From Candidatus Babelota bacterium (lineage in GTDB: Bacteria; Babelota; Babeliae; Babelales; Chromulinivoraceae), in assembly GCA_026389025.1 (NCBI GenBank), contig JAPLIQ010000022.1, positions 1,946 through 65,945 on the forward strand: DNA of 64,000 bases, written 5' to 3'. The position numbers and the translations under genes are program-made. How positions within the stretch are numbered: position 1 is the stretch's first letter; every line of letters begins with the position of its first letter. The notes beneath the pieces are model-generated. The model searched no databases. It had not been told where the DNA came from and worked only from the letters and a program-made list of their open reading frames with translations. Positions 6,011-36,804 of this stretch are shown piece by piece.

Positions 6011-8335
6011 ATGAAAATATTACTTTCGTGGCTTTTAGATTATCTTGATTGCTCTTTTTCTGACATTAACGTTGATACTTTAGTGCATTTGTTTAACACG
6101 CGAACTGCTGAAATTGAGTCATTTGAGCGCGTGCAGTGTGATCCATCATCAATGTTTTTGTGCAAAGTCATTTCTGTAGATTCAAATAAAGTTTCTGCGC
6201 ACTGCCAAGAGTTAAATAGCTCTTTTGATCTTCCTGTAAGACAAGACGTAGTGATCGGTAAAATATATTTGATTTCTAAAGATGGTGCCAATTGGCGCTG
6301 GGTAAACCTGTCTGAATTTCACAGTGAAAAAGATGGCTACTTTCCGGCTGTTTGCGTATCTGATAAAGAGTTCGTTGACGGCTCTTGGAGAGAAAAAATT
6401 GCTTCAGTCGATTACATCTTAGATGTTGATAATAAATCAATTAATCATCGCCCTGATTTATGGGGCCATTACGGTATAGCTCGTGAAGTAGCAGCTTTTT
6501 CAAACTTAAAACTTAAACCCTTACATGCTGTTTTAGTCAAGCAGCCAGTTGTTGCTTCAAGTAAATCCTCATCTTTGCAACTGTCTATTCAAGACCAAGA
6601 GGGATGCATGCGATTTGCAGCGCTTGAGTGCAGAGACGCGCAAAGCAAAGACTCTCAGGTATGGATGGCGATAAGACTGCTGCGCGTTGAGGCAAAACCA
6701 ATAAATGGCATTGTTGATATCACAAACTATGTGATGTTTGATATTGGGCACCCAATGCATGCCTTTGATGCCTCTACCTTTGAAGCAAAAGAAATGATCA
6801 TTCGAAAAGCAAGATCTGCAGAGACTTTGCAGCTGCTTGATGGTCAAAACTTAAAACTAACAACGCAAGATACAATTGTAGCAAATACTCATGGTCCCGT
6901 TGCTCTAGCGGGAATTATGGGTGGCAAAGATTCTGGCTTTACGCAGAGCACCAAAAATATAATTCTTGAAGCTGCTGGATTTGACCCTGCAGTGATTCGT
7001 AAAACTGCACAACATTTTAAATTAAGAACTGAAGCTTCAATTCGCTTTGAAAAACATCTTGATCCTATGCAAAACATTACCGCAATTCAGCGATTTTTAT
7101 ACCTTGCTCAGCAAGAAGGGATTGTATCTGAAGGCCAAGATTCAATCGTGTCAGAGGGTAAAACATTTGAGCCTATCGTGTGCGAAATAACACATGAGTT
7201 TATTGAAAAGCGCATTGGTATACCTTTTACAGCTGAGTTTGTCCAAACAACGTTGAAAGCTTTAGGCTTTGAAGTTGCATTTGATAAGACATCAGGCGTG
7301 TACCACGTAACGGTTCCAACAAGCCGAACAACGAAAGATATTGGTATTGCCGAAGATATTTTAGAAGAAATTATTCGATCGTATGGTTTTGAAAACGTTG
7401 CGCAACAGTTGCCACTAAGGTCAATGGCGCCATTTAGTTTGCAGGTAGTAAACAATGTGGCTCGGGTTAAGAATCATCTAGCTTTTGCTATGAAAATGCA
7501 CGAAGTTAGGGATTATTTGCTCTACGATGCGTCATTTACCGATCGATTGAATTTAAACCTTGATAGCGCAGTTAAAGTGAGAAATCCTTTATCGCAAAAC
7601 TGGACTACGCTCGTCACTTCACTCATTCCTCATTTGCTCAAAGGCGTTGAGCTCAATGCTGCTCGCATGGATCATGTTCGGTTGTTTGAATGCAATCGCA
7701 TATGGTCGAAAAAAGATTGGTCAAAAGAGGATATATCTATTTTTGAACTCAAATCAGTAGCTGGAATTATTTTTGATAAAAAAGATGTTGATTTCTATGC
7801 AAGCAAAAATGAGCTGCAAAGTTTATTTGATTTATTTGGTCTTGAAATAGTCTGGCACAAGCCACTAGGACAAATTCCTGCGTGGTACGATGGACACAAA
7901 GTTGCACAATTATTTTTTGGTGACCAATCTGTGGGATGGGCCGGAATGATGTCAAATCAGTTTATGCATCCAATCGTTTCGGGATCAGCTTTTATCTTTG
8001 AACTTGATGAGCAGTTTTTGCAATCACAACAACCGCAAAAGAAACTATTTGCGCCTTGGTCAAAGTACCAAGACGTAACGTACGACATGAGTCTTTTGAT
8101 TCCATTGCAAGTTACGGTTCATGAACTTAAAAAAGACATAGCCCTGGCTCATGATTTGATCTGCTTTGTCGAGTTGGTCGATTTCTTTGAGAAAGAAGAA
8201 TGGGCGGGTCATCGCTCAGTAACGTTCCGGTATACGATAAGTAACGCTGAAAAAACTATGACTAAACAAGAGTTGCAAGAAGTTACAGAGTCTGTGCAGA
8301 AAGTTGTAAAAAAACATGATGCTCAAATCCGTTAA
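6011..8335 (+). CDS. pheT: phenylalanine--tRNA ligase beta subunit
   Basis: 774 aa. Typical N-terminus MKILLSWLLDYL, B3/4 and B5 region (DITNYVMFDIGHPMHAFD, LAGIMGG), and FDX-ACB-like C-terminus. Confidence 0.9.
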   Translation: MKILLSWLLDYLDCSFSDINVDTLVHLFNTRTAEIESFERVQCDPSSMFLCKVISVDSNKVSAHCQELNSSFDLPVRQDVVIGKIYLISKDGANWRWVNLSEFHSEKDGYFPAVCVSDKEFVDGSWREKIASVDYILDVDNKSINHRPDLWGHYGIAREVAAFSNLKLKPLHAVLVKQPVVASSKSSSLQLSIQDQEGCMRFAALECRDAQSKDSQVWMAIRLLRVEAKPINGIVDITNYVMFDIGHPMHAFDASTFEAKEMIIRKARSAETLQLLDGQNLKLTTQDTIVANTHGPVALAGIMGGKDSGFTQSTKNIILEAAGFDPAVIRKTAQHFKLRTEASIRFEKHLDPMQNITAIQRFLYLAQQEGIVSEGQDSIVSEGKTFEPIVCEITHEFIEKRIGIPFTAEFVQTTLKALGFEVAFDKTSGVYHVTVPTSRTTKDIGIAEDILEEIIRSYGFENVAQQLPLRSMAPFSLQVVNNVARVKNHLAFAMKMHEVRDYLLYDASFTDRLNLNLDSAVKVRNPLSQNWTTLVTSLIPHLLKGVELNAARMDHVRLFECNRIWSKKDWSKEDISIFELKSVAGIIFDKKDVDFYASKNELQSLFDLFGLEIVWHKPLGQIPAWYDGHKVAQLFFGDQSVGWAGMMSNQFMHPIVSGSAFIFELDEQFLQSQQPQKKLFAPWSKYQDVTYDMSLLIPLQVTVHELKKDIALAHDLICFVELVDFFEKEEWAGHRSVTFRYTISNAEKTMTKQELQEVTESVQKVVKKHDAQIR

Positions 8336-8798
8336 AAAAGCTCACGCAATATTATTTTTACTATGTTTTGCCCTACCTTTATTTCTTGATCGAATTACAA
8401 AATACTTGATCGTCAATGAAATCTGGGAAACACAAACTATCACATCTTTTTTCAATCTGTATTTCACCTACAATCGTGGGATTGCCTGGGGCATAGGCAG
8501 TGGGCTTGACCAGCAGTACGCTATGCTGACCACGTTTGTGGTTGCAGCTGTCTTGTTTTATTTTGCATGGTACATGCGGTTGGTTGCAGACAATCATAAA
8601 ATGCTTGGCTCTTGTCTGCTGATTTTATCAGGCGGCTTGTCAAATTTTTTTGATCGCCTATGGTTTGGCGGCGTTGTTGATTTTATACAGCTTCACTATG
8701 CAGGTTGGTATTTTCCGGTATTTAACATTGCGGATGTCAGCATTACCGTTGGCGCAATGTTTTTAAGTTATTTTTTTTTAAGTGATGATAAATCGTGA
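8316..8798 (+). CDS. lspA: lipoprotein signal peptidase II
   Basis: 160 aa, 4 TM segments. Motifs NRGIAWG and FNIADVSITVG. Confidence 0.85.
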   Translation: MMLKSVKKAHAILFLLCFALPLFLDRITKYLIVNEIWETQTITSFFNLYFTYNRGIAWGIGSGLDQQYAMLTTFVVAAVLFYFAWYMRLVADNHKMLGSCLLILSGGLSNFFDRLWFGGVVDFIQLHYAGWYFPVFNIADVSITVGAMFLSYFFLSDDKS

Positions 8799-9508
8799 AA
8801 ATCGATTTCTCCTCGTCCTCGCGCTCGACACGGGGACCGGTTTTATTAATTCTTCGCTGGATAAAAACGCTTTATGATCTGATCGCGTATGTGCTCTGTC
8901 CGCCACTCTGTTATTCTTGCAGAGGGCATTGTCCTTTTCGCGTTATTTTGTGTCAGCAGTGCGAAGAGTCGCTTGAGCTTATTGTTCCTAAAATGTTTCA
9001 ACTTAATAATTCGTATATTTTAACGGTGTACGCAGTCTCTCGGTACACTGAGCCACTACGGCCGATGCTTTTTGCAAAATATAGATCCGATCCTGCAGTC
9101 ATTGAAAAGCTAGCTGAATTAATTTGGAAAAAATCGGTGGTGTCATTGGTGCACGTTGATTGTTTTATACCTATTCCACTTCATTGGACGCGCCAGGTAA
9201 AGCGTGGATTTAATCAGTCGCAGTTGATAGCACAAAGTCTTTCCAATTATTCAAAAATTCCTGTGGTTGACGCTCTGCAGCGTGTAAAAAAAACTGAGTA
9301 TCAAGTAAAGGTTGAACAAGTTGATAGACGATGCAATGTGAAAGGGGCATTTGAACTTGCACAATTTGATTTTGATATTGCAGGCAAGCACATCATGCTT
9401 GTGGATGATTCCTGCACAACTGGTTCAACGGCAATTGAAGCTGCGAAAGTTTTTATCAAATTAAAACCTGCATCAATCAATATGGTCGTTGCCTGTCGAG
9501 CGCTGTAA
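8795..9508 (+). CDS. comF: ComF-family phosphoribosyltransferase
   Basis: N-terminal CxxC...CxxC zinc-finger-like pairs and a C-terminal PRPP motif IMLVDDSCTTGST. Confidence 0.75.
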   Translation: MKIDFSSSSRSTRGPVLLILRWIKTLYDLIAYVLCPPLCYSCRGHCPFRVILCQQCEESLELIVPKMFQLNNSYILTVYAVSRYTEPLRPMLFAKYRSDPAVIEKLAELIWKKSVVSLVHVDCFIPIPLHWTRQVKRGFNQSQLIAQSLSNYSKIPVVDALQRVKKTEYQVKVEQVDRRCNVKGAFELAQFDFDIAGKHIMLVDDSCTTGSTAIEAAKVFIKLKPASINMVVACRAL

Positions 9509-9596
9509 GCTTAACTGTTTCACATTGAAATTAAAGAGCGATCGTGTACTCTTATTACAGATTTCAAAACAAATAATTTTCAACAATAGGAAACAA

Positions 9597-10088
9597 ATGA
9601 AAAAACTATTTTTGTCCTTAATGCTTCTTGCAGGCGTTTATCAAACCACAAATTGTTCATCTGAATCGTCAATAAATTTACGAGCTGTTTCTGTTGGTGT
9701 AATTAGTGGCGCTGCCATTCAACTTGCTTTAGAATCCATGGATTCATCTCCTCAGGCTAGAGAGTCTGCAATGATGGCAGTTGGATTGGCAGGCGGAGCG
9801 ATAGTTGCATCATCGGAAGAGCTACCTTCTGGTTATGCATTAGCGCTTGCTGTTGCAACAGGGCTATACTTATATACCTCAACACAATGTAAAAAAGCAA
9901 AAGAAGCAGAGTTCCTTCAGGAGTCAAGAAATTACTATGTGTCTTCTTACAATATTGCTCGAAATGAATTGACAAGACTACAAGCTGAGAAAGAAGAATT
10001 GACACGTTCCTTGTTTGCTGCAAGGGCTGAGGCATCATCAGCTCAAGTATCAAGACCAACGAGATCTTTTAACGAAGAGGTAGACTAA
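9597..10088 (+). CDS. cassette A: small secreted protein with Gly/Ala-rich hydrophobic segments and a coiled-coil tail
   Basis: Start moved to the ATG at 9597 (AGGAAACAA ATG). Signal peptide MKKLFLSLMLLAGVYQTTNC is shared with cassettes B and C. The ORF-track extension upstream is leader sequence. Confidence 0.6.
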   Translation: MKKLFLSLMLLAGVYQTTNCSSESSINLRAVSVGVISGAAIQLALESMDSSPQARESAMMAVGLAGGAIVASSEELPSGYALALAVATGLYLYTSTQCKKAKEAEFLQESRNYYVSSYNIARNELTRLQAEKEELTRSLFAARAEASSAQVSRPTRSFNEEVD

Positions 10089-10113
10089 AAAAATTTAACT
10101 AAGAATTTAATTA

Positions 10114-10145
10114 GAAAAAGCGCCATGAAAGTGGCGCTATTTTAT
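10114..10145. terminator. bidirectional hairpin terminator, copy 1 of 3
   Basis: AAAAAGCGCCA-TGAAAG-TGGCGCT followed by a T-rich run. Identical hairpins lie at 10833 and 11700. Confidence 0.6.
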
Positions 10146-10181
10146 TTGTAAAATTTAAAGAAAATAAGTTTAATTTTTGAA

Positions 10182-10300
10182 TTATTCAACCACAATTCTT
10201 GGAATTGAATTATTGAGTCGAGCTAAAAATAAACGCATGTTTTTTTTGGCGCCGATTCGCCAGCCATAAGCACTTAATAGTTGTTGCTCGTAGGGCGCTA
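10182..10300 (-). pseudogene. remnant of the alr 3' end, copy 1
   Basis: Minus-strand translation ...APYEQQLLSAYGWRIGAKKNMRLFLARLNNSIPRIVVE* matches the C-terminus of the intact Alr at 11768. No upstream coding body. Confidence 0.75.
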
Positions 10301-10336
10301 TAGTAATTTCACCGTCGCACTCAATATTGTTTCACA

Positions 10337-10364
10337 TTGAAAACAAGTCGCAATTCGGTATAAT
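10337..10364 (+). promoter_or_regulatory. candidate sigma70-type promoter of cassette B
   Basis: TTGAAA, 16-nt spacer, TATAAT, about 48 nt upstream of the ATG at 10412. Duplicated at 11039-11066. Confidence 0.45.
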
Positions 10365-10411
10365 GTTATTTTGATCAACAAAACTAAACAATTTTTAACA
10401 ATAGAAAACAA

Positions 10412-10744
10412 ATGAAAAGACTGTTTTTGTCCTTAATGCTTTTTACAGTTGCCTATCAAAATACACAATGTTCTGATTCGGGAGACTTTCTTGAGCCTGA
10501 GACAGTTATATCTCTAGGAGGATTTGCTATGCATATGGCAATTGGTTGCGTACATGCCAAGGATGCGCTCAATGAATTTCAAAACAATGGTCCTTCTATG
10601 AAAGCAGCGCAAAACACAGGACTGGCTACCTTAAATGTCCTTATTGCAGCTAACTATGGTTCTTCAGCTGCTGTGTTTGGTTCATTGGGTTTAAATCTAA
10701 GTCTGGGCTTAGCAACTTCTGGGTTACTTATTATGAAGCGTTAA
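10412..10744 (+). CDS. cassette B: small secreted Gly/Ala/Ser-rich hydrophobic protein
   Basis: 110 aa. Signal peptide MKRLFLSLMLFTVAYQNTQC is homologous to cassette A up to about residue 22, then unrelated. Confidence 0.6.
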   Translation: MKRLFLSLMLFTVAYQNTQCSDSGDFLEPETVISLGGFAMHMAIGCVHAKDALNEFQNNGPSMKAAQNTGLATLNVLIAANYGSSAAVFGSLGLNLSLGLATSGLLIMKR

Positions 10745-10832
10745 GCGTAAAAGTCTGCTTACTTAGTACTAGGATCTGTCAATACTACAAATAATCTTGC
10801 TAGGCAAAATAATTTAGCTAAGAATGTAATTA

Positions 10833-10862
10833 GAAAAAGCGCCATGAAAGTGGCGCTTTTTC
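10833..10862. terminator. bidirectional hairpin terminator, copy 2 of 3
   Basis: Same AGCGCCA-TGAAAG-TGGCGCT hairpin followed by TTTTT. Confidence 0.6.
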
Positions 10863-10900
10863 AATATGCAATTTAAAGAAAAATAAGCTTAATTCTTGAA

Positions 10901-11018
10901 TTATTCAACCACAATTCTTGGAATTGAATTATTGAGTCGGGCTAGAAACAAACGTACGTTTTTTTTGGCGCCAGTTCGCCAGTGATAAGCACTTAATAGC
11001 TGTTGCTCGTAGGGCACT
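10901..11018 (-). pseudogene. remnant of the alr 3' end, copy 2
   Basis: ORF-track ORF 10901-11083 ends ...VPYEQQLLSAYHWRTGAKKNVRLFLARLNNSIPRIVVE*. Its N-terminal part reads through promoter DNA, so it is not a real gene. Confidence 0.75.
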
Positions 11019-11038
11019 GTAAGCTTAACTGTTTCACA

Positions 11039-11066
11039 TTGAAAAAAAGTCGCAAGTCGGTATAAT
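11039..11066 (+). promoter_or_regulatory. candidate sigma70-type promoter of cassette C
   Basis: TTGAAA, 16-nt spacer, TATAAT. The sequence is a paralog of 10337-10364. Confidence 0.45.
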
Positions 11067-11112
11067 GTTATTTTGATCAACAAAACAAATGATTTTTAAC
11101 AATAGGAAACAA

Positions 11113-11673
11113 ATGAAAAAGCTATTCTTGTCCTTAGCGCTTTTTGGTGGATTTGCGGTAGCAGGGCCAGAAGTAAAACTTACTCAAGAGCAGGAAGAGC
11201 AGTGGAACCAATTGTATGCAAAATTCATGCGGTTTGGCAAATGCAAAAGTCTAATATTTGCAGCTGCTGACCTTAATTCTCAAGAATTAAATCCTGATCA
11301 TAAGTTGCACGATATCATGGATCCTTCACAGAAAGCAGCATGTTCAAGATGGATACAAGAAGAGTCTAGAATTTTCAAGTGTTCGCAATTAGGAGAAGTT
11401 TTTCAGCTAGAAAAATACATCTTCTCTGATGAGTCTAGCTGTATAAAGCTATTGTCTACAATGACCGCATTTGCTATAGAAGAAGAAAAAAACGTAAAAA
11501 AAATGAAACAATTCTGTATGAAGTTCGGCATGTCTGAAGAAGAAGGTATTTCTTTATTGAATGCTCAAATAGAAAAAGAGATTAAGGCACAAATAGCTCG
11601 TGCTCAAGAATTATTTAAAGATCCTGAGCTTGTTAATGATCTTTTTGGTTTAAAAGATGATTCTGCTCAGTAG
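11113..11673 (+). CDS. cassette C: small secreted protein, Glu/Lys-rich, unrelated to A and B after the signal peptide
   Basis: Start at the ATG at 11113 (AGGAAACAA ATG). Signal peptide MKKLFLSLALFGGFAVAG. Confidence 0.6.
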   Translation: MKKLFLSLALFGGFAVAGPEVKLTQEQEEQWNQLYAKFMRFGKCKSLIFAAADLNSQELNPDHKLHDIMDPSQKAACSRWIQEESRIFKCSQLGEVFQLEKYIFSDESSCIKLLSTMTAFAIEEEKNVKKMKQFCMKFGMSEEEGISLLNAQIEKEIKAQIARAQELFKDPELVNDLFGLKDDSAQ

Positions 11674-11699
11674 AAGCAATTAACTAAGAATTTTATATT

Positions 11700-11730
11700 A
11701 GAAAAAGCGCCATGAAAGTGGCGCTTTTTC
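11700..11730. terminator. bidirectional hairpin terminator, copy 3 of 3, shared by cassette C and alr
   Basis: AGCGCCA-TGAAAG-TGGCGCT flanked by an A-run and a T-run, between convergent genes. Confidence 0.65.
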
Positions 11731-11767
11731 CTTGCAAAATTTAAAGAAAATAAGTTTAATTTTTGAA

Positions 11768-12853
11768 TTATTCAACAACAATTCTTGGAATTGAATTATT
11801 GAGTCGAGCTAAAAATATTCGTACGTTTTTTTTGGCACCAATTCGCCAGTCATAAGCACTTAAAACATTATCTCCATCAGTCCCTAAAACAGTGACCACA
11901 TCATGACGTTTTACTTGAGAAATGTGAGTTACATCAACAGTAAAATAGTTCATATTTATTCTGCCAACTATGGGCGCAAATTGTCCGCGAATTAAAACTC
12001 TGCCCGTGTTTGCAAGATCAGGATCGATTCCTTCATAATATCCCATACCTAAAACAGCAAGCGTCGTATTCTTGTCTGCTGTGTAGGTGCGACCATAACC
12101 GACCGTTTGACCAGCAGGGATAGTTTTTAAACCGATAACGCGAGTTTTTAAAGATAAAATTGGTTGCAATTCTTGTTGTTTAACTGGATCTGCTTCGGGC
12201 AGATATCCATAGAGTCCAGCTCCAATGCGCGCAAAAGAGTATTGATATTTGCTTACCAGGCTGCCGTGAGAATTTGTCGTGTGAATTTGAGTTCCGTCTT
12301 CAATTAAGGGCTTAAGCAATTCTTCTTGCTCATGCACTGAGCTTTGGTCAGAAGCTTGAATCAAGTGTGAAAAAATCCCTTGCAGGAAAAGGTTGCTGTT
12401 TGATTTGATCAAATTCATGTAGCTTTCAAATTCTTCTGGCATAATGCCAAGCCGAGACAGGCCAGTATCAATTTTTAAATGAATGTTAATTTTTTTGCCA
12501 TTTTTTTCACCAAGTTTATTTAGAGCCTTGATCGTTTGCACGTCTGATACGATCATATCCAGGTTGTGCTCTGCAATATCTTGAAGTGATGTGTTGATAA
12601 ATCCAAGGACTAAAATGGGCTTGGTAACTCCATGCTGTCTGAGCTCTACGCCTTCCTGCGTGTTTGCAACGCATAGCCTCGTAACGTGTGAATTTTGATC
12701 ATGAATGAGGCCTACTTCTTTGAGTCCGTGACCGTAAGCATTTGCTTTGATGACCGGAGCGATACCAGTTTGCTTAGGAAGCCAAAGACGATACTTGTTG
12801 ATGTTGTGCTCAAGAGCTGATTTTTTAATCTCTATCCAAGTCGTGTAATTCAT
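11768..12853 (-). CDS. alr: alanine racemase
   Basis: 361 aa. PLP-lysine motif VIKANAYGHG, with family-typical sequence throughout. Confidence 0.9.
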   Translation of the reverse strand: MNYTTWIEIKKSALEHNINKYRLWLPKQTGIAPVIKANAYGHGLKEVGLIHDQNSHVTRLCVANTQEGVELRQHGVTKPILVLGFINTSLQDIAEHNLDMIVSDVQTIKALNKLGEKNGKKINIHLKIDTGLSRLGIMPEEFESYMNLIKSNSNLFLQGIFSHLIQASDQSSVHEQEELLKPLIEDGTQIHTTNSHGSLVSKYQYSFARIGAGLYGYLPEADPVKQQELQPILSLKTRVIGLKTIPAGQTVGYGRTYTADKNTTLAVLGMGYYEGIDPDLANTGRVLIRGQFAPIVGRINMNYFTVDVTHISQVKRHDVVTVLGTDGDNVLSAYDWRIGAKKNVRIFLARLNNSIPRIVVE

Positions 12854-13005
12854 GGTTTTTATTTTGCATTAAATAGATGTTGAAACAGTTACAATTCATT
12901 GTAGTAAAGCAAAAAAGAGGCAATCATACAATCTAAATCTAGAAAAAAAGGGGTGGTTTTGGTAATCTATCTATATCGTTATGTATTGTTTGAGCAAAAG
13001 GTCTT

Positions 13006-15318: not shown

Positions 15319-16551
15319 ATGGCAAAAGTTTTTCATTCTTTAATTACTTCAATCGATGTTGGAACAACTAAAATTTCTGTGCTGATTGCACAAAAAACAA
15401 GTGATGACACTGTTGAGATACTCGGCATTGGCAAATCGCCATCCGATGGTCTTGATAAAGGTGTCGTTGTTGACGTTGCTCGAACAGTTCAATCCATTAA
15501 GCGTGCTGTAAAAGAAGCTGAGCTTATGGCTGGCTGTAGCATTTCAGAAGCGTATGTAGGAATTTCTGGAAGTCATATTCACTCTTTTAACACTCATGGC
15601 GCAGTTCCTATTAAACGCTCGCAAGTGCTTCCTTCAGACATTCAAGCCGTTTTGACTGTTGCTCAGGCGGTACCAATTGAAGAGGGACAAAAAGTACTTC
15701 ATGCATTGCCACAATATTTTATGGTTGACGGAAAAGATCGTGTGGTCAATCCGCTTGGTCTTCATGGAGTCAGGCTAGAAGCTGTGGTCCATGTTATTAC
15801 TGGAGCTGTTTTTTCCATACAAAATTTAATGAAGTGTTGCGAGCTTGCAGGCGTTACTGTTAAAGATATTGTTTTAGAGCAACTAGCATCTGCTGAAGGT
15901 GTTTTAAGTCCTGATGAACGAGCTTTAGGCGTCGGCGTGCTCGACATTGGTGGTGGAACATCTGATTTTGCAATTTATCAACAAAGCAGCATTCGATACA
16001 CCAAAGTGTTTCCACTCGCTGGAAATTATTTCACTAAAGATTTAGCCGTTGGACTGCGAGCAACTTTGCATGATGCTGAACGCTTCAAACGTGAACATGG
16101 ATTTGTAGGGTACATGCAACAAGAGCATGATGAAGAACTTGAAATTGAATCGGTGCAGGGTAATTCGGTTCATAAAGTGAGCAAACAACAAGCAGGATAT
16201 ATTTTGCATGCAAGAGCTTTAGAGCTGTTCATGCTGCTGCAAGATGACATAAAACGATCATCTCTTGCATCTATGATGACTGCTGGTTTAGTTATTACAG
16301 GAGGTGGATCACTTTTGGTAGGAATTGATGACCTTGCTAAAAAAATGTTGGGAATGCCTGTACGAATTGGAAGACCTCGAGTTGATTGTGGTTTTTCAGA
16401 AATTTTAAATAATCCGACACATGCAACGGGTTATGGTCTTTTAAAATATGCCTTACGAAAAGATAAACAAGTAGGCATGAACCAGATGGAAGGACCTATG
16501 GCACAACGTGTTTTTACGAAAATGAGATCTTGGGTAGATAAATTTTTTTAA
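15319..16551 (+). CDS. ftsA: cell division protein FtsA
   Basis: Actin-fold motifs (IDVGTTKISV, DIGGGTSD, ITGGGS). Start at the ATG at 15319 after AGGGGAAA. Confidence 0.9.
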   Translation: MAKVFHSLITSIDVGTTKISVLIAQKTSDDTVEILGIGKSPSDGLDKGVVVDVARTVQSIKRAVKEAELMAGCSISEAYVGISGSHIHSFNTHGAVPIKRSQVLPSDIQAVLTVAQAVPIEEGQKVLHALPQYFMVDGKDRVVNPLGLHGVRLEAVVHVITGAVFSIQNLMKCCELAGVTVKDIVLEQLASAEGVLSPDERALGVGVLDIGGGTSDFAIYQQSSIRYTKVFPLAGNYFTKDLAVGLRATLHDAERFKREHGFVGYMQQEHDEELEIESVQGNSVHKVSKQQAGYILHARALELFMLLQDDIKRSSLASMMTAGLVITGGGSLLVGIDDLAKKMLGMPVRIGRPRVDCGFSEILNNPTHATGYGLLKYALRKDKQVGMNQMEGPMAQRVFTKMRSWVDKFF

Positions 16552-16570
16552 ACCTGTTTAAGGAGTGGTA

Positions 16571-17728
16571 ATGATAAAGTTCGATGCGCTAAATGATAAT
16601 GAGCATGATAGTTCTTTTGTGAAAATTAAAATCTTAGGAATTGGTGGTGCAGGAGGCAACACAATTAATAGCATGAAAGATTTTGGTTTAGAAGGTGTTA
16701 GTGGCTATGTGGCAGCTAACTCAGACATGCAGGCGCTGCGTCAATCGAAAGCTGATTGTAAAATTCAGTTAGGCGTTAAAGCAACTAAAGGACTTGGTTG
16801 TGGAGCAAACCCAGAAGTTGGTCGTCGCGCTACAGAAGAAGATTTAGAACAAATCATGGAGCAGCTCAGTGATGCTGATATCGTTTTTATCGTTGCAGGT
16901 ATGGGTGGCGGAACTGGTTCAGGCGGAGCTCCTGTGGTAGCCAAAGCTTTAAAAGATCGTGGCATTTTAACTATTGCGGTAGTTACCAAGCCATTTGTTT
17001 TTGAAGGAAGACGTCGCATGAATATTGCTCAAGAAGCTTTAGAAACGCTAAAAAAAGAAGTTGATACATTGATTGTAGTTCCTAATGAAAAACTATTAAA
17101 TCTTGTTGATCGTTCAACTTCGATGATTGAATCTTTTGAAATGATTAATCAATTATTGATGCAATCAGTAAAAAGTGTTTCTTCAATTATTTCTCGCTCT
17201 GGTCACATCAATGTAGATTTTGCAGATTTGCGTGCGATCATGAAGGGCATGGGACTTGCAATGATGGGAACTGGTAGTGCTTCTGGTGAAAATAGAGCTG
17301 TTGAAGCTGCAAAAAAAGCGATCTCTTCTCAGTTGCTTGAAAATATGGATATCAAAAGTGCACGCGGTGTACTTTTAAATATTTGTGGTGGCCCAGATTT
17401 ATCACTGCATGAAATTAATGATGCTGCAAATGTAATTTATGATGAATCAAATAAAGATGCCCATATTATTTTAGGTTCAGTAATTGATCCTAACATGGGT
17501 GATGAAGTGGTTGTCTCTGTTATTGCTACAGGTTTTTCTCCGGTGGGAGTTCAAGCACAAGCTGAAAAAATTGTCGCTTCTGTTTCTCAATTTCCACAAG
17601 AAGAAAAACGTTTGTTTGTAGAGCCACAACTTGCTAGAATTATGGCAGAAGATAGCAACAAATCTCAAGATGATTCTTTTGAGGTTCCTGCTTATTTAAG
17701 GCAACAGCAGGGTATTGATCAAAAATAA
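16571..17728 (+). CDS. ftsZ: cell division GTPase FtsZ
   Basis: GIGGAGGN, the tubulin signature GGGTGSG, and NVDFADL. AAGGAG SD upstream. A GTG at 16565 is an alternative start. Confidence 0.95.
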   Translation: MIKFDALNDNEHDSSFVKIKILGIGGAGGNTINSMKDFGLEGVSGYVAANSDMQALRQSKADCKIQLGVKATKGLGCGANPEVGRRATEEDLEQIMEQLSDADIVFIVAGMGGGTGSGGAPVVAKALKDRGILTIAVVTKPFVFEGRRRMNIAQEALETLKKEVDTLIVVPNEKLLNLVDRSTSMIESFEMINQLLMQSVKSVSSIISRSGHINVDFADLRAIMKGMGLAMMGTGSASGENRAVEAAKKAISSQLLENMDIKSARGVLLNICGGPDLSLHEINDAANVIYDESNKDAHIILGSVIDPNMGDEVVVSVIATGFSPVGVQAQAEKIVASVSQFPQEEKRLFVEPQLARIMAEDSNKSQDDSFEVPAYLRQQQGIDQK

Positions 17729-29460: not shown

Positions 29461-30255
29461 ATGAATTACAGCAAACCACGCCTCCAAGGTATTGAATTAA
29501 AGAAAAGATATGGCCAGCATTTTTTAAAAGATCGGACGTATGTCGATCGAATGATTTCTGCTGTTCATTTGGATAATACTGTTTCTGTCATGGAAATTGG
29601 ATGCGGAGAAGGAATTTTGACAGGAGCAATCCTTGAAGGTCCGTGCAAACAATTAAAAGTTTTTGAGATTGATGGGCAATGGGCTGAGCATGTACAAAAT
29701 AAGTATGGCTCGGACAGCAGGCTGCATGTGATTGAAAATAACATTTTGGATGTTTATTGGGACACGCTCCTGCCTGAAGCACCTTGGGTTCTTTTGGCAA
29801 ATCTTCCCTATCAAATAACGTTTCCTATTTTGTATTTACTCCAAAAAAATAGAGAAATGTTTTTGGAAGGCGTAATTATGATTCAAGAAGAAGTTGCGCA
29901 AAAAATTGTGAAAACTTCTGGACGCGGTCATGGTTATTCTTCTTTGTATTTTCAACATTATTTTGATTGGAAGTTAATGGATAAAATTGCTCCTGAAGCT
30001 TTTTATCCAGCGCCTAACGTTTTTTCTCGGTTGTTGTACTTTAAACCCAAAAAAGTTGTTCAAGTAATTGAACGTGAAGAAGAGTTTTGGAAGTTTATTA
30101 AATTGTGTTTTGTGCAACCGCGCAGAACATTTCGCAACAATCTAGCTCAGTCACATTTTGATATAGAAAAATTGGACGAGCAAACATTGAAAAAACGCGC
30201 TGAGCAACTTTCAATGGAAGAGTTTTTACAGGTTTGGCAGCTTTTAATTGCATAA
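29461..30255 (+). CDS. rsmA: 16S rRNA (adenine1518/1519-N6)-dimethyltransferase
   Basis: YGQHFLKD, EIGCGEGILT (SAM site) and ANLPYQIT. Confidence 0.9.
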   Translation: MNYSKPRLQGIELKKRYGQHFLKDRTYVDRMISAVHLDNTVSVMEIGCGEGILTGAILEGPCKQLKVFEIDGQWAEHVQNKYGSDSRLHVIENNILDVYWDTLLPEAPWVLLANLPYQITFPILYLLQKNREMFLEGVIMIQEEVAQKIVKTSGRGHGYSSLYFQHYFDWKLMDKIAPEAFYPAPNVFSRLLYFKPKKVVQVIEREEEFWKFIKLCFVQPRRTFRNNLAQSHFDIEKLDEQTLKKRAEQLSMEEFLQVWQLLIA

Positions 30256-30272
30256 ATAAGCTTAAATTTTAT

Positions 30273-30309
30273 AGGCTCGAATTCAGTTTGGATTCGGGCC
30301 TATTTTTTT
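30273..30309 (+). terminator. rho-independent terminator directly abutting the next gene's RBS
   Basis: AGGCTCGAAT-loop-ATTCGGGCCT plus TATTTTTTT, immediately followed by AAGGAG and the GTG at 30323. Duplicated at 33716. Confidence 0.55.
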
Positions 30310-30322
30310 AAGGAGAAGCTTT

Positions 30323-33300
30323 GTGAAGAAAATAATAGTAAGCTTGGTGGCAATTTTTAGTTGTGGTTCAGTTCAGGCTATTAATATTAAATTGCTTAAG
30401 GGTACGCATACTATTGCGCCAGAGAATTATAGTCCTGTTATGGGAGTATCGTTTTTAGAGTGTGGGATTGCAGAGCAGTGGTATAAATTGAGTGCTCGAA
30501 GTCAAGCAGCGCAACTGAAAGAAGTTTTAGAAAAAAATCCTAAGGCTCTGATTGACAATCCTGAGCTAACAAAATTTACTCAAAATATGCCAAAAAATAG
30601 CGCAACAGAAGATTTGATTATGTTGATGTTTCACATAGCTGGTGGATCATTTGGTGTGACTAATGCAGATGATAATCCTGTGAAATATTTAGAGCCGATG
30701 CATATTGGAAAAATTTTACAAGTCGTGCAAAAGTGGGAACAAGCATCTGCGAATTCAGAAAAAATGGCAGCATTAAAGGTTCAAGCAATATCGAAAAAAT
30801 CTGAGTACGATATAAAAATAACAAGTTTGCAGAAGGAAATGTCTCAGCTAAATACTAAAATTTTAGCAGCAAAAAAAACAGGTAATGATTCTTTGGTTGC
30901 CAGCCTACAAAATGAGTTAGGTTTAAAAAATGCAGATCGTGTAAAATATCAAGCTTTATCAAAAAAATTAGTAAGTCATGAGTCAATAGACTTTGTCGAA
31001 CAATCTTTGCAACAAGAATTAAATGATTTGTGTATGAGTTTTAAATTTGAACGTAAAAACAAAAAGTTGTTTACGGAAGGTGACTGGAATTCATTTGCAA
31101 AGCCGCTTATTGGATCAATTAAAGAAAGCACTGATAATCAGCGATTATACGCCGAAAATACGACGCAAGGTATTTTGCTTGGGTTTATGCTTAAAAAATC
31201 AAATACGCGTAATGATTTGCAGAGTTATTTCAGGGGACTTTTAAAGGATGAAGCCTTTGTTTTGCCTTTGACAAAGGAATATAGCTCTGCAGAAATAAAT
31301 AAAATTCTTGCTGAAAAAACAGATACTTCTAATTTTGAGAAATTGGCAGATTTATTGTCTGCATATACGAGTAAAAAATTGTATGAATCAGTCCTTCCGA
31401 GCATAACAGGCTATCAATTTGTTAACTATAAAGGGATAGAGTATTCAGATTGTATGGACACTGTGATTCGTGTGCTTGTAAATATTGTAACTTATCAACC
31501 AAATGAAAATAAGCTTGGGGTTACTCCGAGCGGTTTGCGGTTAAATAAAGAAGCTCAAGAATTTTATAAGTCAGAAGATGGACTTTGTGAAAATCCTGCA
31601 GAGGTTGGCAATATCAAGGTACATGAAGCCTGGGCTAACGTTGCTTCAAATATTCCTGGTTGCGTGTATAAACAAATAGGAACTGGGCCAGAAAATGTAA
31701 TGTCTACTCCGCCAGAAGGATTTGATGGATTTATGCCAGTCGACTATACCTTTACCCAGAAAGCTCCAGGAAAAATTGAAATAGATGGTACATCTTATGA
31801 TTCTTATCCTGTAACGGTTGGTGTAAAAACATATACATTGGTACAAAAAAAAGTTGGCAATGCGACTTATTTGCTTGTGCCAAAAAATTCAGAACTTTTT
31901 TGCTGTGAAATGAGAACTAACTTATTAAATATTGTTATAGCGTTAAGTAAGATCCTTGATTTAGGTCTTTACTCAAAATTTGATGAAATATATGAGCCTG
32001 ATTTTGCCTTAAATAAATTTAAGCAGCTTTGTGAAAAGTTGAATTGGGAGCCTTTAGTTGAGATAACAAAACTTGATCAGACAGGGGAAATGATTATTCC
32101 TATTAATGTTGGGCAAAGTAAATTTTCTCTTAATTTGGACTATAATCGTCATGCAAAAATTACTGATATAATTGAAAAAACATACAATGTTAATCTTGAA
32201 GTATCACCAGCAACAAGTCAGTCAAGAGTTGCTGCAATAGTTGGAGTTGGCCTTAAAAAAATAGCAGTTCTTCCTGATGACTTACAAGCAGCTTGTTTGT
32301 ATAAAAATGTAGCTGCTTTAAGTATTAATCAGCGCATTGAGGTTGTTGACGAGATGCTTAAAGATAAAAATAGTTTGAAAGATGTGGAAAAAAATTATGT
32401 TAAATGTTTAATCATGAGTTTTAGTTTGGTTGATCATTTAAGCTATTTACCAATAATAGTTGACTATTTTGGGGAAGACTTGAAAAAAGTAGGGTTGGGT
32501 GATTTTATTGTATCAGCTTTAAATCTACATGATGCTACACATAAAAGTGATCTTCTTCTGCTATCATTGTCAAACTTGATTAAATATGAATTAATAACAG
32601 GGGATCAAATATTGCCACTGCTTCCAGTGATTGAAAAAGGACTGAGTAGTTCAAGTAGCTCTGTTCAATCTGCCGCTATTTCAGCAGTTACTAGTTTAAT
32701 AGGAGCTAAGTTAGTAACAGTTGATCAAGTATTGCCATTGCTTGCAAAAGGACTGAGTGGTACAGATTTGTCTACTCAATCGACTGCTATGTCAGAAGTT
32801 ACTAGTTTAATAGAAGCTAAATTAGTAACAGTTGATCAAGTATTGCCATTGCTTGAAAATGGAATGAGTAGTGCACGTTTGAATGTTCAAAATGAAGCTA
32901 TCTCAGGAATTAATGATTTAATAAAATCTAATCTAGTAGCAGTTGATCAAGTATTGCCATTGCTTAAAATCCTTGAAAAAGGACTAGATAGTACAGATTC
33001 GGATATTGAATATAAAGCTATCTCAGGAATTAATGATTTAATAAAGTCTAACTTAGTAACAGTTGATCAAGTATTGCCATTGCTTGCAAAAGGACTGAGT
33101 AGTCTTAATTTTAACGTTGAAAATAGAGCTATCTCAGGAATTAATGATTTAATAAAATCTAACCTAGTAACGGTTGATCAAGCATTGCCATTGCTTGACA
33201 TACTTGAAAAAGGACTAGGTAGAACGCCTACTATTGAGCAGAAAGCTATTTCAGGAATTAATGGTTTAATCAAATTTAAATTAGTAACTGCGGATCAAGT

Positions 33301-33499
33301 ATTTTCATTGGTTAAAGCAAGATGGAGTCATGTAAATAAAAATTCTCAAGAGCTCTTTCTGAAAACAGTTGAAAGTTTAGTTGAAGCAGAAATGATAACT
33401 AAATTAGAAATTCAGAGTTTAATTGTTGGGGCAAAAGATAACAAAATTGGTAAAAAATTAGCAGAATTAAAGGCTAAAGCAACCAGTTTCAATTCATAA
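30323..33499 (+). CDS. large secreted protein, paralog 1: orphan ~640-aa N-domain, coiled coil, seven HEAT-like repeats
   Basis: 1058 aa. AAGGAG SD plus GTG start. Signal peptide MKKIIVSLVAIFSCGSVQA. Roughly two-thirds to three-quarters identical by eye to 33766-36804 over the N-domain. Confidence 0.75.
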   Translation: MKKIIVSLVAIFSCGSVQAINIKLLKGTHTIAPENYSPVMGVSFLECGIAEQWYKLSARSQAAQLKEVLEKNPKALIDNPELTKFTQNMPKNSATEDLIMLMFHIAGGSFGVTNADDNPVKYLEPMHIGKILQVVQKWEQASANSEKMAALKVQAISKKSEYDIKITSLQKEMSQLNTKILAAKKTGNDSLVASLQNELGLKNADRVKYQALSKKLVSHESIDFVEQSLQQELNDLCMSFKFERKNKKLFTEGDWNSFAKPLIGSIKESTDNQRLYAENTTQGILLGFMLKKSNTRNDLQSYFRGLLKDEAFVLPLTKEYSSAEINKILAEKTDTSNFEKLADLLSAYTSKKLYESVLPSITGYQFVNYKGIEYSDCMDTVIRVLVNIVTYQPNENKLGVTPSGLRLNKEAQEFYKSEDGLCENPAEVGNIKVHEAWANVASNIPGCVYKQIGTGPENVMSTPPEGFDGFMPVDYTFTQKAPGKIEIDGTSYDSYPVTVGVKTYTLVQKKVGNATYLLVPKNSELFCCEMRTNLLNIVIALSKILDLGLYSKFDEIYEPDFALNKFKQLCEKLNWEPLVEITKLDQTGEMIIPINVGQSKFSLNLDYNRHAKITDIIEKTYNVNLEVSPATSQSRVAAIVGVGLKKIAVLPDDLQAACLYKNVAALSINQRIEVVDEMLKDKNSLKDVEKNYVKCLIMSFSLVDHLSYLPIIVDYFGEDLKKVGLGDFIVSALNLHDATHKSDLLLLSLSNLIKYELITGDQILPLLPVIEKGLSSSSSSVQSAAISAVTSLIGAKLVTVDQVLPLLAKGLSGTDLSTQSTAMSEVTSLIEAKLVTVDQVLPLLENGMSSARLNVQNEAISGINDLIKSNLVAVDQVLPLLKILEKGLDSTDSDIEYKAISGINDLIKSNLVTVDQVLPLLAKGLSSLNFNVENRAISGINDLIKSNLVTVDQALPLLDILEKGLGRTPTIEQKAISGINGLIKFKLVTADQVFSLVKARWSHVNKNSQELFLKTVESLVEAEMITKLEIQSLIVGAKDNKIGKKLAELKAKATSFNS
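32591..33400 (+). repeat. in-frame tandem DNA repeats of 111-120 bp encoding 37-40-aa HEAT/ARM-like units
   Basis: Unit starts (TTAGTAACAGTTGATCAAGTATTGCCATTGCTT or variants) at about 32591, 32711, 32822, 32933, 33053, 33164 and 33281. Peptide unit: LVTVDQVLPLL..KGL......AISGINDLIKSN. Confidence 0.85.
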
Positions 33500-33554
33500 A
33501 AAAGTTATTTTGTCCAAAAATCAAAAACAAGAAATAATTAAAAGAATCAAGCAA

Positions 33555-33698
33555 GTGCAACCCCGCAGAACATTTCGCAACAATCTAGCTCAGTCACATT
33601 TTGATATAGAAAAATTGGACGAGCAAACATTGAAAAAACGCGCTGAGCAACTTTCGATGGAAGAGTTTTTGCACATTTGGAAGCTTTTAATTGTATAA
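33555..33698 (+). pseudogene. duplicated 3' fragment of rsmA (last ~47 codons)
   Basis: Only a handful of mismatches by eye versus 30112-30255. The ORF-track ORF 33510-33698 is a junction chimera: a remnant of the large protein's tail (KNQKQEIIKRIK) joined to the rsmA tail. Confidence 0.85.
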
Positions 33699-33715
33699 AC
33701 AACTTTAATTTTTAT

Positions 33716-33752
33716 AGGCTCGAATTCAGTTTGGATTCGGGCCTATTTTTTT
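33716..33752 (+). terminator. duplicate of the rsmA terminator
   Basis: Same hairpin and T-run as 30273-30309, followed by AAGGAG and the GTG at 33766. Confidence 0.55.
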
Positions 33753-33765
33753 AAGGAGAAGCTTT

Positions 33766-36700: not shown

Positions 36701-36804
36701 AAAGAGAGCTGGAAGCGCAAGAACGGTCAGAGAAAGAAGCAAGGGCGCAAAAAGAAGCAAGTGCGCAAAGGAATGATTCTGCTTCGCATGAAGTAATTCG
36801 TTAG
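33766..36804 (+). CDS. large secreted protein, paralog 2: same N-domain, four degenerate HEAT-like repeats, Lys/Glu/Gln-rich tail
   Basis: 1012 aa. Signal peptide MKKIIVSLVAIFSYVSVQA. C-terminal tail ...EEIIKRINPKPYEKKQAMQEQHQRELEAQERSEKEARAQKE. Confidence 0.75.
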   Translation: MKKIIVSLVAIFSYVSVQATVSPIWLKGTVVKGLENCSPFMGLSFLEWGIAEQWYKLCPKELQRQMEEVFKENPEALRDNPKLAKFVKEIGKNSATEDLVMSMFHIAGGSFGLTNADDNPVKYLEPKHIGKILRIVHKWTEASLDPEKIKTLKNEAKDKKAIHKAAIAEIGKETSRLAGVISRAQKLNEEVADRKNELEIKNAKLKEHQTLSGKVVSHESTDFVEKSLQQELNDLCMSFEFKGKNKKLFPEAQWKSFVTSLVGSIQESTGAQRSYAENTPQGILLGFMLKKSNNKDDLQSYFRGLLNNETFVLSPQEEYSSTEMSQTLARKTDASDFEKFSDLLSAFTIKALYEAGLPRITGHQSVNYKGIQFVDCMDTAIRMLANIVTYQPNKNKLGVTPSGLRLNKEAQEFYNSEKGLCADPAEVGNSKVHQAWTNVVSNISGCVYKQIGKGPGSVISAPPEGFDGFMPVDYISTQTASGEIEIDGKSYKSYALKIGGTVYTLAQKKVGNATYLLVPKNSELFCCEIRTNLLNTVIALNKIFDLDLYSKFDDIYEPNFALKKFTQLCEKFNWEPQVDITKLDPTKDMIIPIKVGQNEFSIHLGYNTHGAVTNKNKLATSVNLEVPDGTSQPVIAAIVSAGLKKIRDLPKNLQPGYLYKNVDISTDEKRYQTILSIFQSAPAEQTYLKKLIQSFSFVENEEYLGKIITKVLNPLEDEKTITASHNTLIEFVLSAALIHSLQYKSSTLVFDYLSSFIKYNILTIKEALSLLEKGLDSSLWKVVDSSCREIIALIKEKLVAVGQIAPLMEKAAGNKNVNVQKMFLKEILSLINDKLLTADQVWPIVEEGLKSKDLYNRSHSVNIITALVKEGIATKSKIDQLLPFVEQGLRYSNTFLQRASVRMIESLAEAGMITQSKIESLINLPITDDVKEKLEILKVKAPVSIFKKVKLSPKQTEEIIKRINPKPYEKKQAMQEQHQRELEAQERSEKEARAQKEASAQRNDSASHEVIR

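Follow-up and report, generated by a model that had tools for sequence, protein, structure and literature searches.

Recombination between short conserved segments and variable coding bodies is a process already known for the surface-protein families of some pathogens. In the erp genes of Borrelia burgdorferi (ospE/ospF/elp, with their 'upstream homology box'), the promoter/operator, the leader peptide and the first mature residues are conserved and the bodies have several origins, and the published account reads the family as one promoter/leader module recombined with diverse open reading frame (ORF) bodies, recombination being frequent among host-interaction proteins (PMC10016077). The tandem lpl cluster of Staphylococcus aureus is, according to the study by Tsuru & Kobayashi (2008), built on a conserved unit that runs from the 3' end of one gene through the intergenic region to the 5' end of the next, with homologous recombination shuffling the variable parts (PMC2568036). 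The locus described in the present work, for which these two are the closest analogues in mechanism, lies between comF and alr on contig JAPLIQ010000022.1 of assembly GCA_026389025.1 (Candidatus Babelota bacterium), within a stretch of 64,000 nucleotides (positions 1,946 to 65,945 of the forward strand) which is referred to below as the window, and to which all positions refer unless another locus is named. At 9488-11888 the comF-alr interval holds three direct units, each composed of a predicted promoter of sigma-70 type, a leader, a predicted Sec signal peptide, a cargo (A, B or C) and a bidirectional terminator hairpin. From its sequence the interval is best described as a small, fast-evolving slot for predicted secreted proteins, holding three autonomous genes. 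The flanks and the cargos of these genes have had different histories, and we assign a probability of about 0.85 to the explanation that flank modules recombined, as against divergence of the genes in place.

The likeness to erp would be one of mechanism, a single promoter/leader module being joined to many bodies. The erp products are, in contrast, lipoproteins encoded at allelic positions on cp32 prophage plasmids, whereas the slot here is a chromosomal tandem array; moreover, neither a conserved 3' module nor housekeeping-gene scars are described for erp. The slot proteins have no sequence relation to erp, and the Cys is preceded here by T-T-N or N-T-Q, not by the residues of the lipobox L-x-[GAS]-C. 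With lpl the locus has in common a chromosomal tandem cluster, there of paralogous host-interaction proteins, with shuffling at conserved segments; the conserved recombination site of lpl, however, lies in the middle of the ORF and its variable parts are still homologous, whereas here the ends are conserved and the bodies cannot be aligned. In this regard, the DUF576 domain of S. aureus Lpl has no Pfam match in the cargos.

Segmental tandem duplication that leaves a novel-junction scar, together with concerted evolution by gene conversion, belongs to general bacterial genetics, and the direct repeats, the distal-to-proximal junction and the mosaic identity between copies are all seen at this locus. 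Duplicated genes are normally alike, whereas here only the flanks are. Integron cassettes offer a further parallel, in that unrelated genes are stacked in one orientation and each is followed by a hairpin-forming element, but here there is no intI integrase and no attC architecture (R''-L''/L'-R' cores with extrahelical bases), and the units carry their own promoters. What is distinctive, therefore, is the conservation of both flanks around unalignable bodies, the chromosomal housekeeping context and the presence of datable scars of housekeeping genes. The locus is a recombination mosaic and not a new type of mobile system.

Repeated flanks and dead gene ends

A repeat search of the window returned a 5' repeat of 92-93 nt (82% and 69% identity) and a 3' repeat of 216 nt (87% and 74% identity). 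The leader AACAATAGGAAACAAATGAAAAA is present in three copies, with none elsewhere in the 64 kb, and the 22-nt hairpin core AAAGCGCCATGAAAGTGGCGCT in exactly three, at 10117, 10836 and 11704, where none would be expected by chance. On alignment the units share the leader, the first ~11 codons (MKK/RLFLSL.L.), a motif after the stop codon, the hairpin and a spacer, with identities between units of 91-94% for the leader in all pairs, 72-85% over nucleotides 1-39 of the coding sequence (CDS), 100% for the hairpin and 91-92% for a 96-nt alr fragment that follows it. Past the coding sequences, the units of A and C become alignable with the others again within ~6 nt of the stop codon, that of B only 62 nt after it. 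An original prediction, made from the letters of the sequence without database searches, had described three direct units with near-alike flanks around unalignable cargos between comF and alr, and the repeat search, BLASTP, Smith-Waterman and hhalign results all bear this out. It had also suggested that the flanks be sought elsewhere, and no further copy of flank or cargo was found in the rest of the window, in 18 retrieved loci or in viral contigs.

The repeated flanks derive from tandem duplication of the whole comF-alr interval. This follows from both internal junctions, at 10182-10303 and 10901-11022, where the 3' end of alr (alr', 96 nt) is fused to the 3' end of comF (comF', ~21 nt) with the same breakpoints, such that the distal end of the segment is joined to its proximal end, as in a tandem segmental duplication. 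The first alr fragment (10182-10277, minus strand) includes the stop codon and matches the end of live alr at 92% identity (K=0.088); comF' follows it at 10283-10303 (plus strand, from alignment) and is itself followed by a 17-nt insertion. The second alr fragment (10901-10996, minus strand) stands at K=0.10 to both the live alr end and the first fragment, and is followed by a second comF' with a copy of the 25 nt that come after comF (11002-11044, plus strand; a repeat family at 88%). The alr pseudo-copies of ~115 bp that had been noticed after units 1 and 2 are indeed there, but the repeated alr-side sequence is made up of 96 coding nucleotides and the spacer of ~43 nt that separates the terminator from alr, and the ~21-nt comF piece had been overlooked. 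Such scars are absent from the corresponding loci of five related genomes (L015, L001, L002, L004 and L005). What does not conform to a plain tandem duplication is that the flanks are 82-92% identical and the cargos match one another only at random level.

The dead pieces of housekeeping genes act as an internal neutral clock, and make the locus an unusually clean and datable case of modular gene evolution. K lies at 0.088-0.10 both for the alr fragments against live alr and for one fragment against the other, and the synonymous divergence (dS) from L015 is 0.88 for alr and 0.70 for comF (1.19 and 1.03, respectively, from L001). Since the scars stand at K~0.09-0.10 against a dS to L015 of 0.70-0.88, the flanks are estimated to have their common origin at about one-eighth of the depth of the split from this nearest sampled relative.

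Within the flanks, the closest partner of a given segment switches on a scale of 20-40 nt. Units 2 and 3 are 89% identical in comF' and 94% in the promoter core, where unit 1 reaches only 72% and 44-47%, respectively; units 1 and 3, on the other hand, are identical at 25 of 25 positions between the comF stop and the -35 box and 90% identical from the hairpin to the alr stop, and there it is unit 2 that stands apart, at 76% with its 17-nt insertion and at 70-74%. The leader and alr' (~91%) are about equally alike in all pairs. The alignments thus show the flanks to be fine-scale mosaics.

The original prediction had placed a TTGAAA...TATAAT region in every unit; this is correct for units 2 and 3, but unit 1 has TTGAAA with a different core. 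In unit 1 (promoter and leader at 9516-9596, plus strand) the -35 box TTGAAA at 9525-9530 is accompanied by a weak -10 element and an RBS-like (ribosome-binding site) TAGGAAA; in unit 2 (10337-10411, plus strand) TTGAAA-16-TATAAT matches at 11 of 12 positions; and in unit 3 (11039-11112, plus strand) the same arrangement is identified from the promoter pattern and the alignment of units. The ~85 nt upstream of A (9511-9596) are 80% identical (65/81, z=12) to L001 12675-12760 (minus strand), upstream of the first slot gene of that genome, and are barely similar to the corresponding region of the closer relative L015, although synonymous sites are saturated between the window and L001 (dS~1.1). 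This similarity points to either strong constraint or an exchange of promoter/leader modules between lineages.

At the 3' ends, folding gives the hairpins energies of -15 to -21 kcal/mol (z -4.4 to -6.5) on both strands: hairpin 1 (10114-10142) has -15.1 kcal/mol and z -4.4, hairpin 2 (10833-10862) has -20.9 kcal/mol, and hairpin 3 (11701-11730), which C and the convergent alr have in common, has -20.4 kcal/mol on the plus and -20.0 kcal/mol on the minus strand. Each is a perfect GC-rich stem of 8-13 bp flanked by an A tract and a T tract, such that a U tract results on both strands, and the slot hairpin, placed between convergent genes, has the features of an intrinsic (Rho-independent) bidirectional terminator. 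It is kept in all relatives with a compensatory change from GCGCC/GGCGC to GCGTC/GACGC. Because it is retained after the slot in every relative, including those with a single gene, the hairpins are taken to be ordinary bidirectional slot/alr terminators and not a recombination site for cassettes.

Cargo proteins and their relatives in the same slot

Cargos A (9597-10088; 163 aa; MCX5924365.1 / NTZ68_03010), B (10412-10744; 110 aa; MCX5924366.1 / NTZ68_03015) and C (11113-11673; 186 aa; MCX5924367.1 / NTZ68_03020) are ORFs of the plus strand, all annotated as hypothetical proteins on one 84-kb contig of a Dependentiae metagenome-assembled genome (MAG; MCX5924365-67). By eye, their signal peptides end at AXA-type sites, with MKKLFLSLMLLAGV before YQ in A, MKRLFLSLMLFTVA before YQ in B and MKKLFLSLALFGGFAVA before GP in C, the Sec signal being predicted from sequence alone. 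The compositions are as originally claimed, Gly/Ala/Ser making up 35% of A and of B, and charged residues 30% of C. Cargo A has the mature start YQTTNCSS, Gly/Ala-rich hydrophobic helices and a C-terminal coiled coil; B has the motif YQNTQCSD and a hydrophobic Gly/Ala/Ser-rich body, without the coiled-coil tail of its homologue.

Comparison of the cargos with one another by BLASTP aligns only the signal peptide. Smith-Waterman alignment of the mature parts gives z of 0.06 for A and B and of -0.44 and 0.52 for the other pairs, local DNA alignment finds no similarity (z<2), and tblastn finds no frame-shifted homology. The profile comparison that had been proposed as a check, made with hhalign on the three cargo types, returned probabilities below 1% from profiles that are very shallow, and the AlphaFold2 (AF2) models of C (predicted local distance difference test, pLDDT, 45) and A (pLDDT 48), although helical, have low confidence and are too poor for a comparison of folds. 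The DNA homology between A and B does extend to ~CDS nt 66, close to the residue 22 at which it had been said to end, and it takes in the mature N-terminal motif Y-Q/K-N/T-x-x-C-S, which is also present in relatives. Given the signal peptide, this motif and an architecture of Gly/Ala-rich hydrophobic helices in common, A and B probably belong, as very distant relatives, to a single family, and C clearly to another. The cargos had been described as unrelated, which stands for C and probably fails for A and B. An apparent match of A to a hidden Markov model (HMM) of the C type (3.4 bits, p=0.003), which weakened to 1.6 bits (p=0.017) when the HMM was improved, is regarded as a coiled-coil or periodicity artefact; all cross-type cargo tests are non-significant.

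Related Babeliales/Dependentiae contigs were found with the alr protein, and seven of these relatives are informative, none of them of the same species. They fall into clade I (the window, L015/L009 and L001), with an Alr of 361 aa and alr identities of 78-89%, and clade II (L002, L004, L005 and L017), with an Alr of 381 aa and identities of 83-86% within the clade and 67-71% to clade I. The slot contains one gene in L015/L009, two in L001, one each in L002, L004 and L017, and two in L005; in L003 the comF-[x]-alr synteny is absent. The comparison of the interval across relatives for which the original prediction had called thus reveals the same slot with differing contents, and with the homologues of the cargos in different genomes: clade I slots carry A/B types and clade II slots C types, and the window has both.

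The individual links are of uneven strength. Cargo B matches the single slot gene of L015/L009 (P0003) by BLASTP (43% over 60 aa, E 1e-12), and its mature part alone does so at 9.7 bits, a score reached by 0 of 1000 shuffles, and at a Smith-Waterman z of 5.5. The only significant relative of the mature part of A is gene 1 of L001 (Smith-Waterman z=4.3, 0 of 300 shuffles; BLASTP 28% over 71 aa). Cargo C, left out of the model, scores 14.9 bits (E 1.3e-6, 0 of 3000 shuffles) against an HMM of the slot proteins of L002, L004, L005 and L017, the match covering a C-terminal motif of ~45 aa, KN..K.KKF...F..S.EE...L....E; two Cys are invariant in the C-type alignment. By these features C belongs with the C-type proteins P0005, P0006, P0009 and those of the L005 genes, and A and B belong with P0002, P0003 and L001 gene 1, which begin with the MKKLFLSL... 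signal peptide and a mature start Y-Q/K-N-x-x-C-S-D/E. The full-length members of the A/B type have a coiled-coil tail, and B has none. A, B and C differ more from each other than B does from its L015 homologue, and the genomes in which the homologues lie are at a dS of 0.7-1.2 or more from the window genome. Taken together, these matches show the three cargos to be old, separate lineages, whose homologues occupy the comF-alr slot of relatives that differ from one cargo to the next.

Cargo C combines the two types. Its codons 1-11/13 are an A/B-type signal-peptide start, of which 12 of 13 residues are identical to the L015 signal peptide (tblastn), and the remainder is a charged, Cys-containing, helical body of the C type; all other C-type proteins start MKN(K/R/N)L. 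On this evidence C is shown to be a chimera, in which the signal-peptide start of the A/B type is joined to a body of the C type.

Within clade II the alr genes are 83-86% identical and the cargos ~28-30%, such that the cargos are estimated to evolve between species at a near-neutral rate. This fits host-interaction or envelope proteins of an intracellular protist parasite. Indeed, Dependentiae are an uncultured phylum of protist parasites, for which reason the slot proteins are reasonable candidates for host-interaction or envelope factors. The databases are consistent with very fast evolution. No cargo or homologue has a significant match in Pfam or NCBIfam; three word-indexed database searches with the cargos returned only proteins already known from the syntenic loci; and a profile search run exhaustively over 1.84 billion representatives yielded three additions, of which one (P0009) is a true C-type protein, one a fragment and one a spurious repeat protein. 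Among the 5.8 and 1.84 billion proteins covered, the cargos thus occur as singletons or in tiny families, and the three orphan predicted secreted proteins and the two tiny families constitute the fastest-evolving content of a conserved housekeeping neighbourhood.

Cargo B is also shorter than its L015 homologue (110 against 167 aa), lacking the Gln-rich coiled-coil tail, and its reading frame ends in TAA GCG TAA, after which come 62 nt of private non-coding DNA (spacer at 10745-10805, plus strand, defined by alignment and confined to unit 2). B may be a decaying gene or a short variant, and the spacer is possibly a remnant of a lost C-terminal region of B; the spacer has no significant similarity to the 3' untranslated region in L015.

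Some details of the relatives' slots may be added. In L001, the junction of the two A-type genes (11913-11975, minus strand) is a degenerate slot terminator, AAAAAGCTCCATGAAAGTGACGCTT, with an RBS directly after it and without any alr or comF scar, which points to a duplication that arose independently or earlier and was joined differently. The alr of L005 runs with its stop into the end of the convergent slot gene, the terminator hairpin being placed between its two slot genes instead. The Alr of clade II, and also that of L003, has a C-terminal extension of ~20 aa (380-381 against 361 aa).

Probable recombination between flank modules and its alternatives

The histories of flanks and cargos are discordant, in that neighbouring genes carry flanks and coding bodies which the scar clock places at different depths. 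Recombination is required because the flanks are young, the cargos have no DNA similarity, and the slot gene to which a cargo is related lies, for each of the three, in a different genome. It would have been homologous recombination, by unequal crossing-over or gene conversion, with the short conserved modules at the ends of the units as portable homology: at the 5' end the leader and the first ~11 codons, and at the 3' end the terminator region. Such events would shuffle and homogenise the DNA between cargos and would halt at the non-homologous cargo bodies. From this we infer one of two outcomes: the DNA between the cargos of an old multi-gene slot was made uniform by recombination, or recombination placed other cargos in young duplicates. 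The original proposal of cassette-like replacement through conserved flanks is in this respect half right, since recombination is needed but the hairpin is no cassette site and serves as an ordinary terminator.

One alternative is that the genes were duplicated in tandem and their coding sequences diverged in place, by drift or by extreme diversifying selection, under purifying selection on the flanks. Promoter, leader, signal peptide and terminator are, after all, functional elements which are kept between species (as seen in the 80% match of unit 1 to the L001 upstream region, and in the terminator of all relatives), and the cargos evolve very fast between species. Purifying selection nevertheless fails as an explanation because the dead alr/comF scars, which have no function, are as conserved, at 91-92%, as the leader and the other functional flanks. 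The age of the scars predicts cargos that are ~90% identical in DNA, synonymous sites included, and no DNA similarity, frame-shifted or otherwise, is found; each cargo, furthermore, resembles a gene from another genome more closely than it does the cargos beside it. The original contention that simple duplication and drift do not suffice is thereby upheld, whereas extreme diversifying selection since the duplication, which it had offered as one way out, is contradicted, as it would have left the synonymous sites alignable, and the cargo lineages are older than the flanks. On these sequence comparisons divergence in place is to be regarded as excluded for practical purposes. An integron-type, site-specific cassette system with the hairpin as its recombination site would account for mutually unrelated cargos, each with a conserved, imperfectly palindromic hairpin at its 3' end, but is scarcely tenable: as originally noted, no integrase or other recombinase is present in the housekeeping neighbourhood (window ORFs, and the Pfam-annotated syntenic region of L015, ~8 kb on each side), the hairpin is a perfect stem with A/T tracts and serves as the terminator in single-gene relatives, every unit has its own promoter, the scars are pieces of the flanking genes and bear the signature of a segmental duplication, and an Rfam scan of the region gave only one chance match below threshold. 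An assembly artefact, in which the contig falsely strings together repeats, or variants of a single-unit slot from different strains, is improbable in our judgement. The sequence does come from a MAG; exact-protein look-ups of B, of C, of C from an alternative start and of a junction ORF gave no match in other assemblies; and an independent Logan assembly recovers cargo A only, in a contig (SRR20698647) that is 100% identical to window 8593-10137 and ends inside the repeated hairpin. This contig, however, stops exactly at the ambiguous hairpin 30-mer, as expected for real repeats at k=31, and the two junction sequences are unique and ~9-10% different from the live genes and from each other, which an assembler could not have made up; the longest exact repeats between units (34-44 nt) are below read length and the usual final k-mers. 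The Logan contig is consistent with real repeats, but independent assembly support for the tandem order stops at unit 1.

More serious are two accounts that bring in foreign DNA. In one, which is possible if on balance doubtful, a single-gene slot was duplicated and then triplicated recently, after the split from L015, and foreign cargo alleles were then imported by homologous recombination with DNA of related strains, whose other cargo types would lie behind leader and terminator modules of a similar kind; as a variant of the same account, a circularised copy of a foreign interval could have integrated by a single crossover, making the alr'|comF' scar in one step. The scars are indeed young and unique to the window genome, the closest relative L015 has a single unit, C types are otherwise confined to clade II, the sequence upstream of unit 1 resembles that of L001 to a degree that dS~1.1 would not lead one to expect, and the presence of the competence gene comF makes DNA uptake conceivable. 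In addition, of the eight sites that distinguish the scars from the live alr and comF ends of the window, six have the L015 state in the scars (alr' shows GGC, CGT-TTA and GTG, and comF' an AGG Arg codon, compared with L015 8636-8735 / 7870-7899), the live window genes having at these sites the state seen in L001 and clade II. Yet the scars also have three window-specific derived sites in common with live alr, and L015-like and window-like states alternate within 60 nt, so that a single donor fits poorly. Among the sampled loci there is no potential donor in which an A/B-type leader precedes a C-type body; the known C-type loci have different leaders and signal peptides, and the first chimera would have needed illegitimate recombination. 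In the other account, which we hold to be rather unlikely, the comF-alr slot is an integrase-free cassette site with portable 5' (promoter, leader and start of the signal peptide) and 3' (terminator) modules, at which related Dependentiae strains, for example in a shared protist host, would exchange cargos and stack them by way of circularised slot copies, the scars recording foreign insertion. Were such strain-to-strain exchange to be true, effector repertoires could be shuffled and stacked through short promoter/leader and terminator homology, without a dedicated recombinase. The L015-like states of the scars were considered as proof of a foreign donor and dropped as such, the alternation being too fine and an AT-biased reversion being possible.

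As to the course that recombination between flank modules may have taken, we lean, at roughly even odds, towards an entirely intragenomic version. An old multi-gene slot with A-type, B-type and C-type genes would have undergone duplication of the whole slot, which made the scar junction (J); crossovers of terminator with terminator and of signal peptide with signal peptide would then have spread J and deleted surplus copies, with A-J-B-J-C, and a hybrid signal peptide on C, as the outcome. The homology that such a path needs does exist, since internal terminators are found between the slot genes of the two-gene slots of L001 (degenerate) and L005. A number of points weigh against this reading. 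The path requires at least five recombination events, and C-type genes would have had to be lost independently in the lineages of L015 and L001. Among the seven informative relatives no intermediate arrangement is seen, and the L015 states at six of the eight scar sites hint at a foreign donor. The link between A and L001 is weak, Smith-Waterman and BLASTP supporting it and an HMM test giving p=0.13. Secretion, promoter activity and termination, moreover, are predicted properties of the units.

Neighbourhood of the slot and further features

The slot is set in the gene order pheT-lspA-comF-[slot]-alr-SpoU methylase-ftsA-ftsZ-secA. Its left border, comF (ORF at 8795-9508, plus strand), encodes a ComFC-like phosphoribosyltransferase-domain protein (Pfam PF00156, E 6e-6), and its right border, alr (11768-12853, minus strand), an alanine racemase of 361 aa (Pfam PF01168 and PF00842). 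The synteny of comF is kept in L001, L002, L004, L005, L015 and L017. In L002 alone, a 98-aa ORF with a GIY-YIG nuclease domain (12616-12912, minus strand; Pfam E 5e-15) is inserted between lspA and comF, immediately beside the slot.

Elsewhere in the window, at 30112-36656, there is a 3.44-kb tandem duplication with 72-94% identity. Its paralogous ORFs, 30323-33499 (1058 aa) and 33766-36804 (1012 aa), contain internal repeats of 111 nt (37 aa), and the first of them has weak matches to helical-repeat domains of eukaryotic type (TVHS-like, ParcG and Cnd1). Just beyond pheT in L001, finally, the gene at 16395-17219 encodes a collagen-triple-helix protein with GxT/GxS repeats and a BclA-like C-terminal domain.

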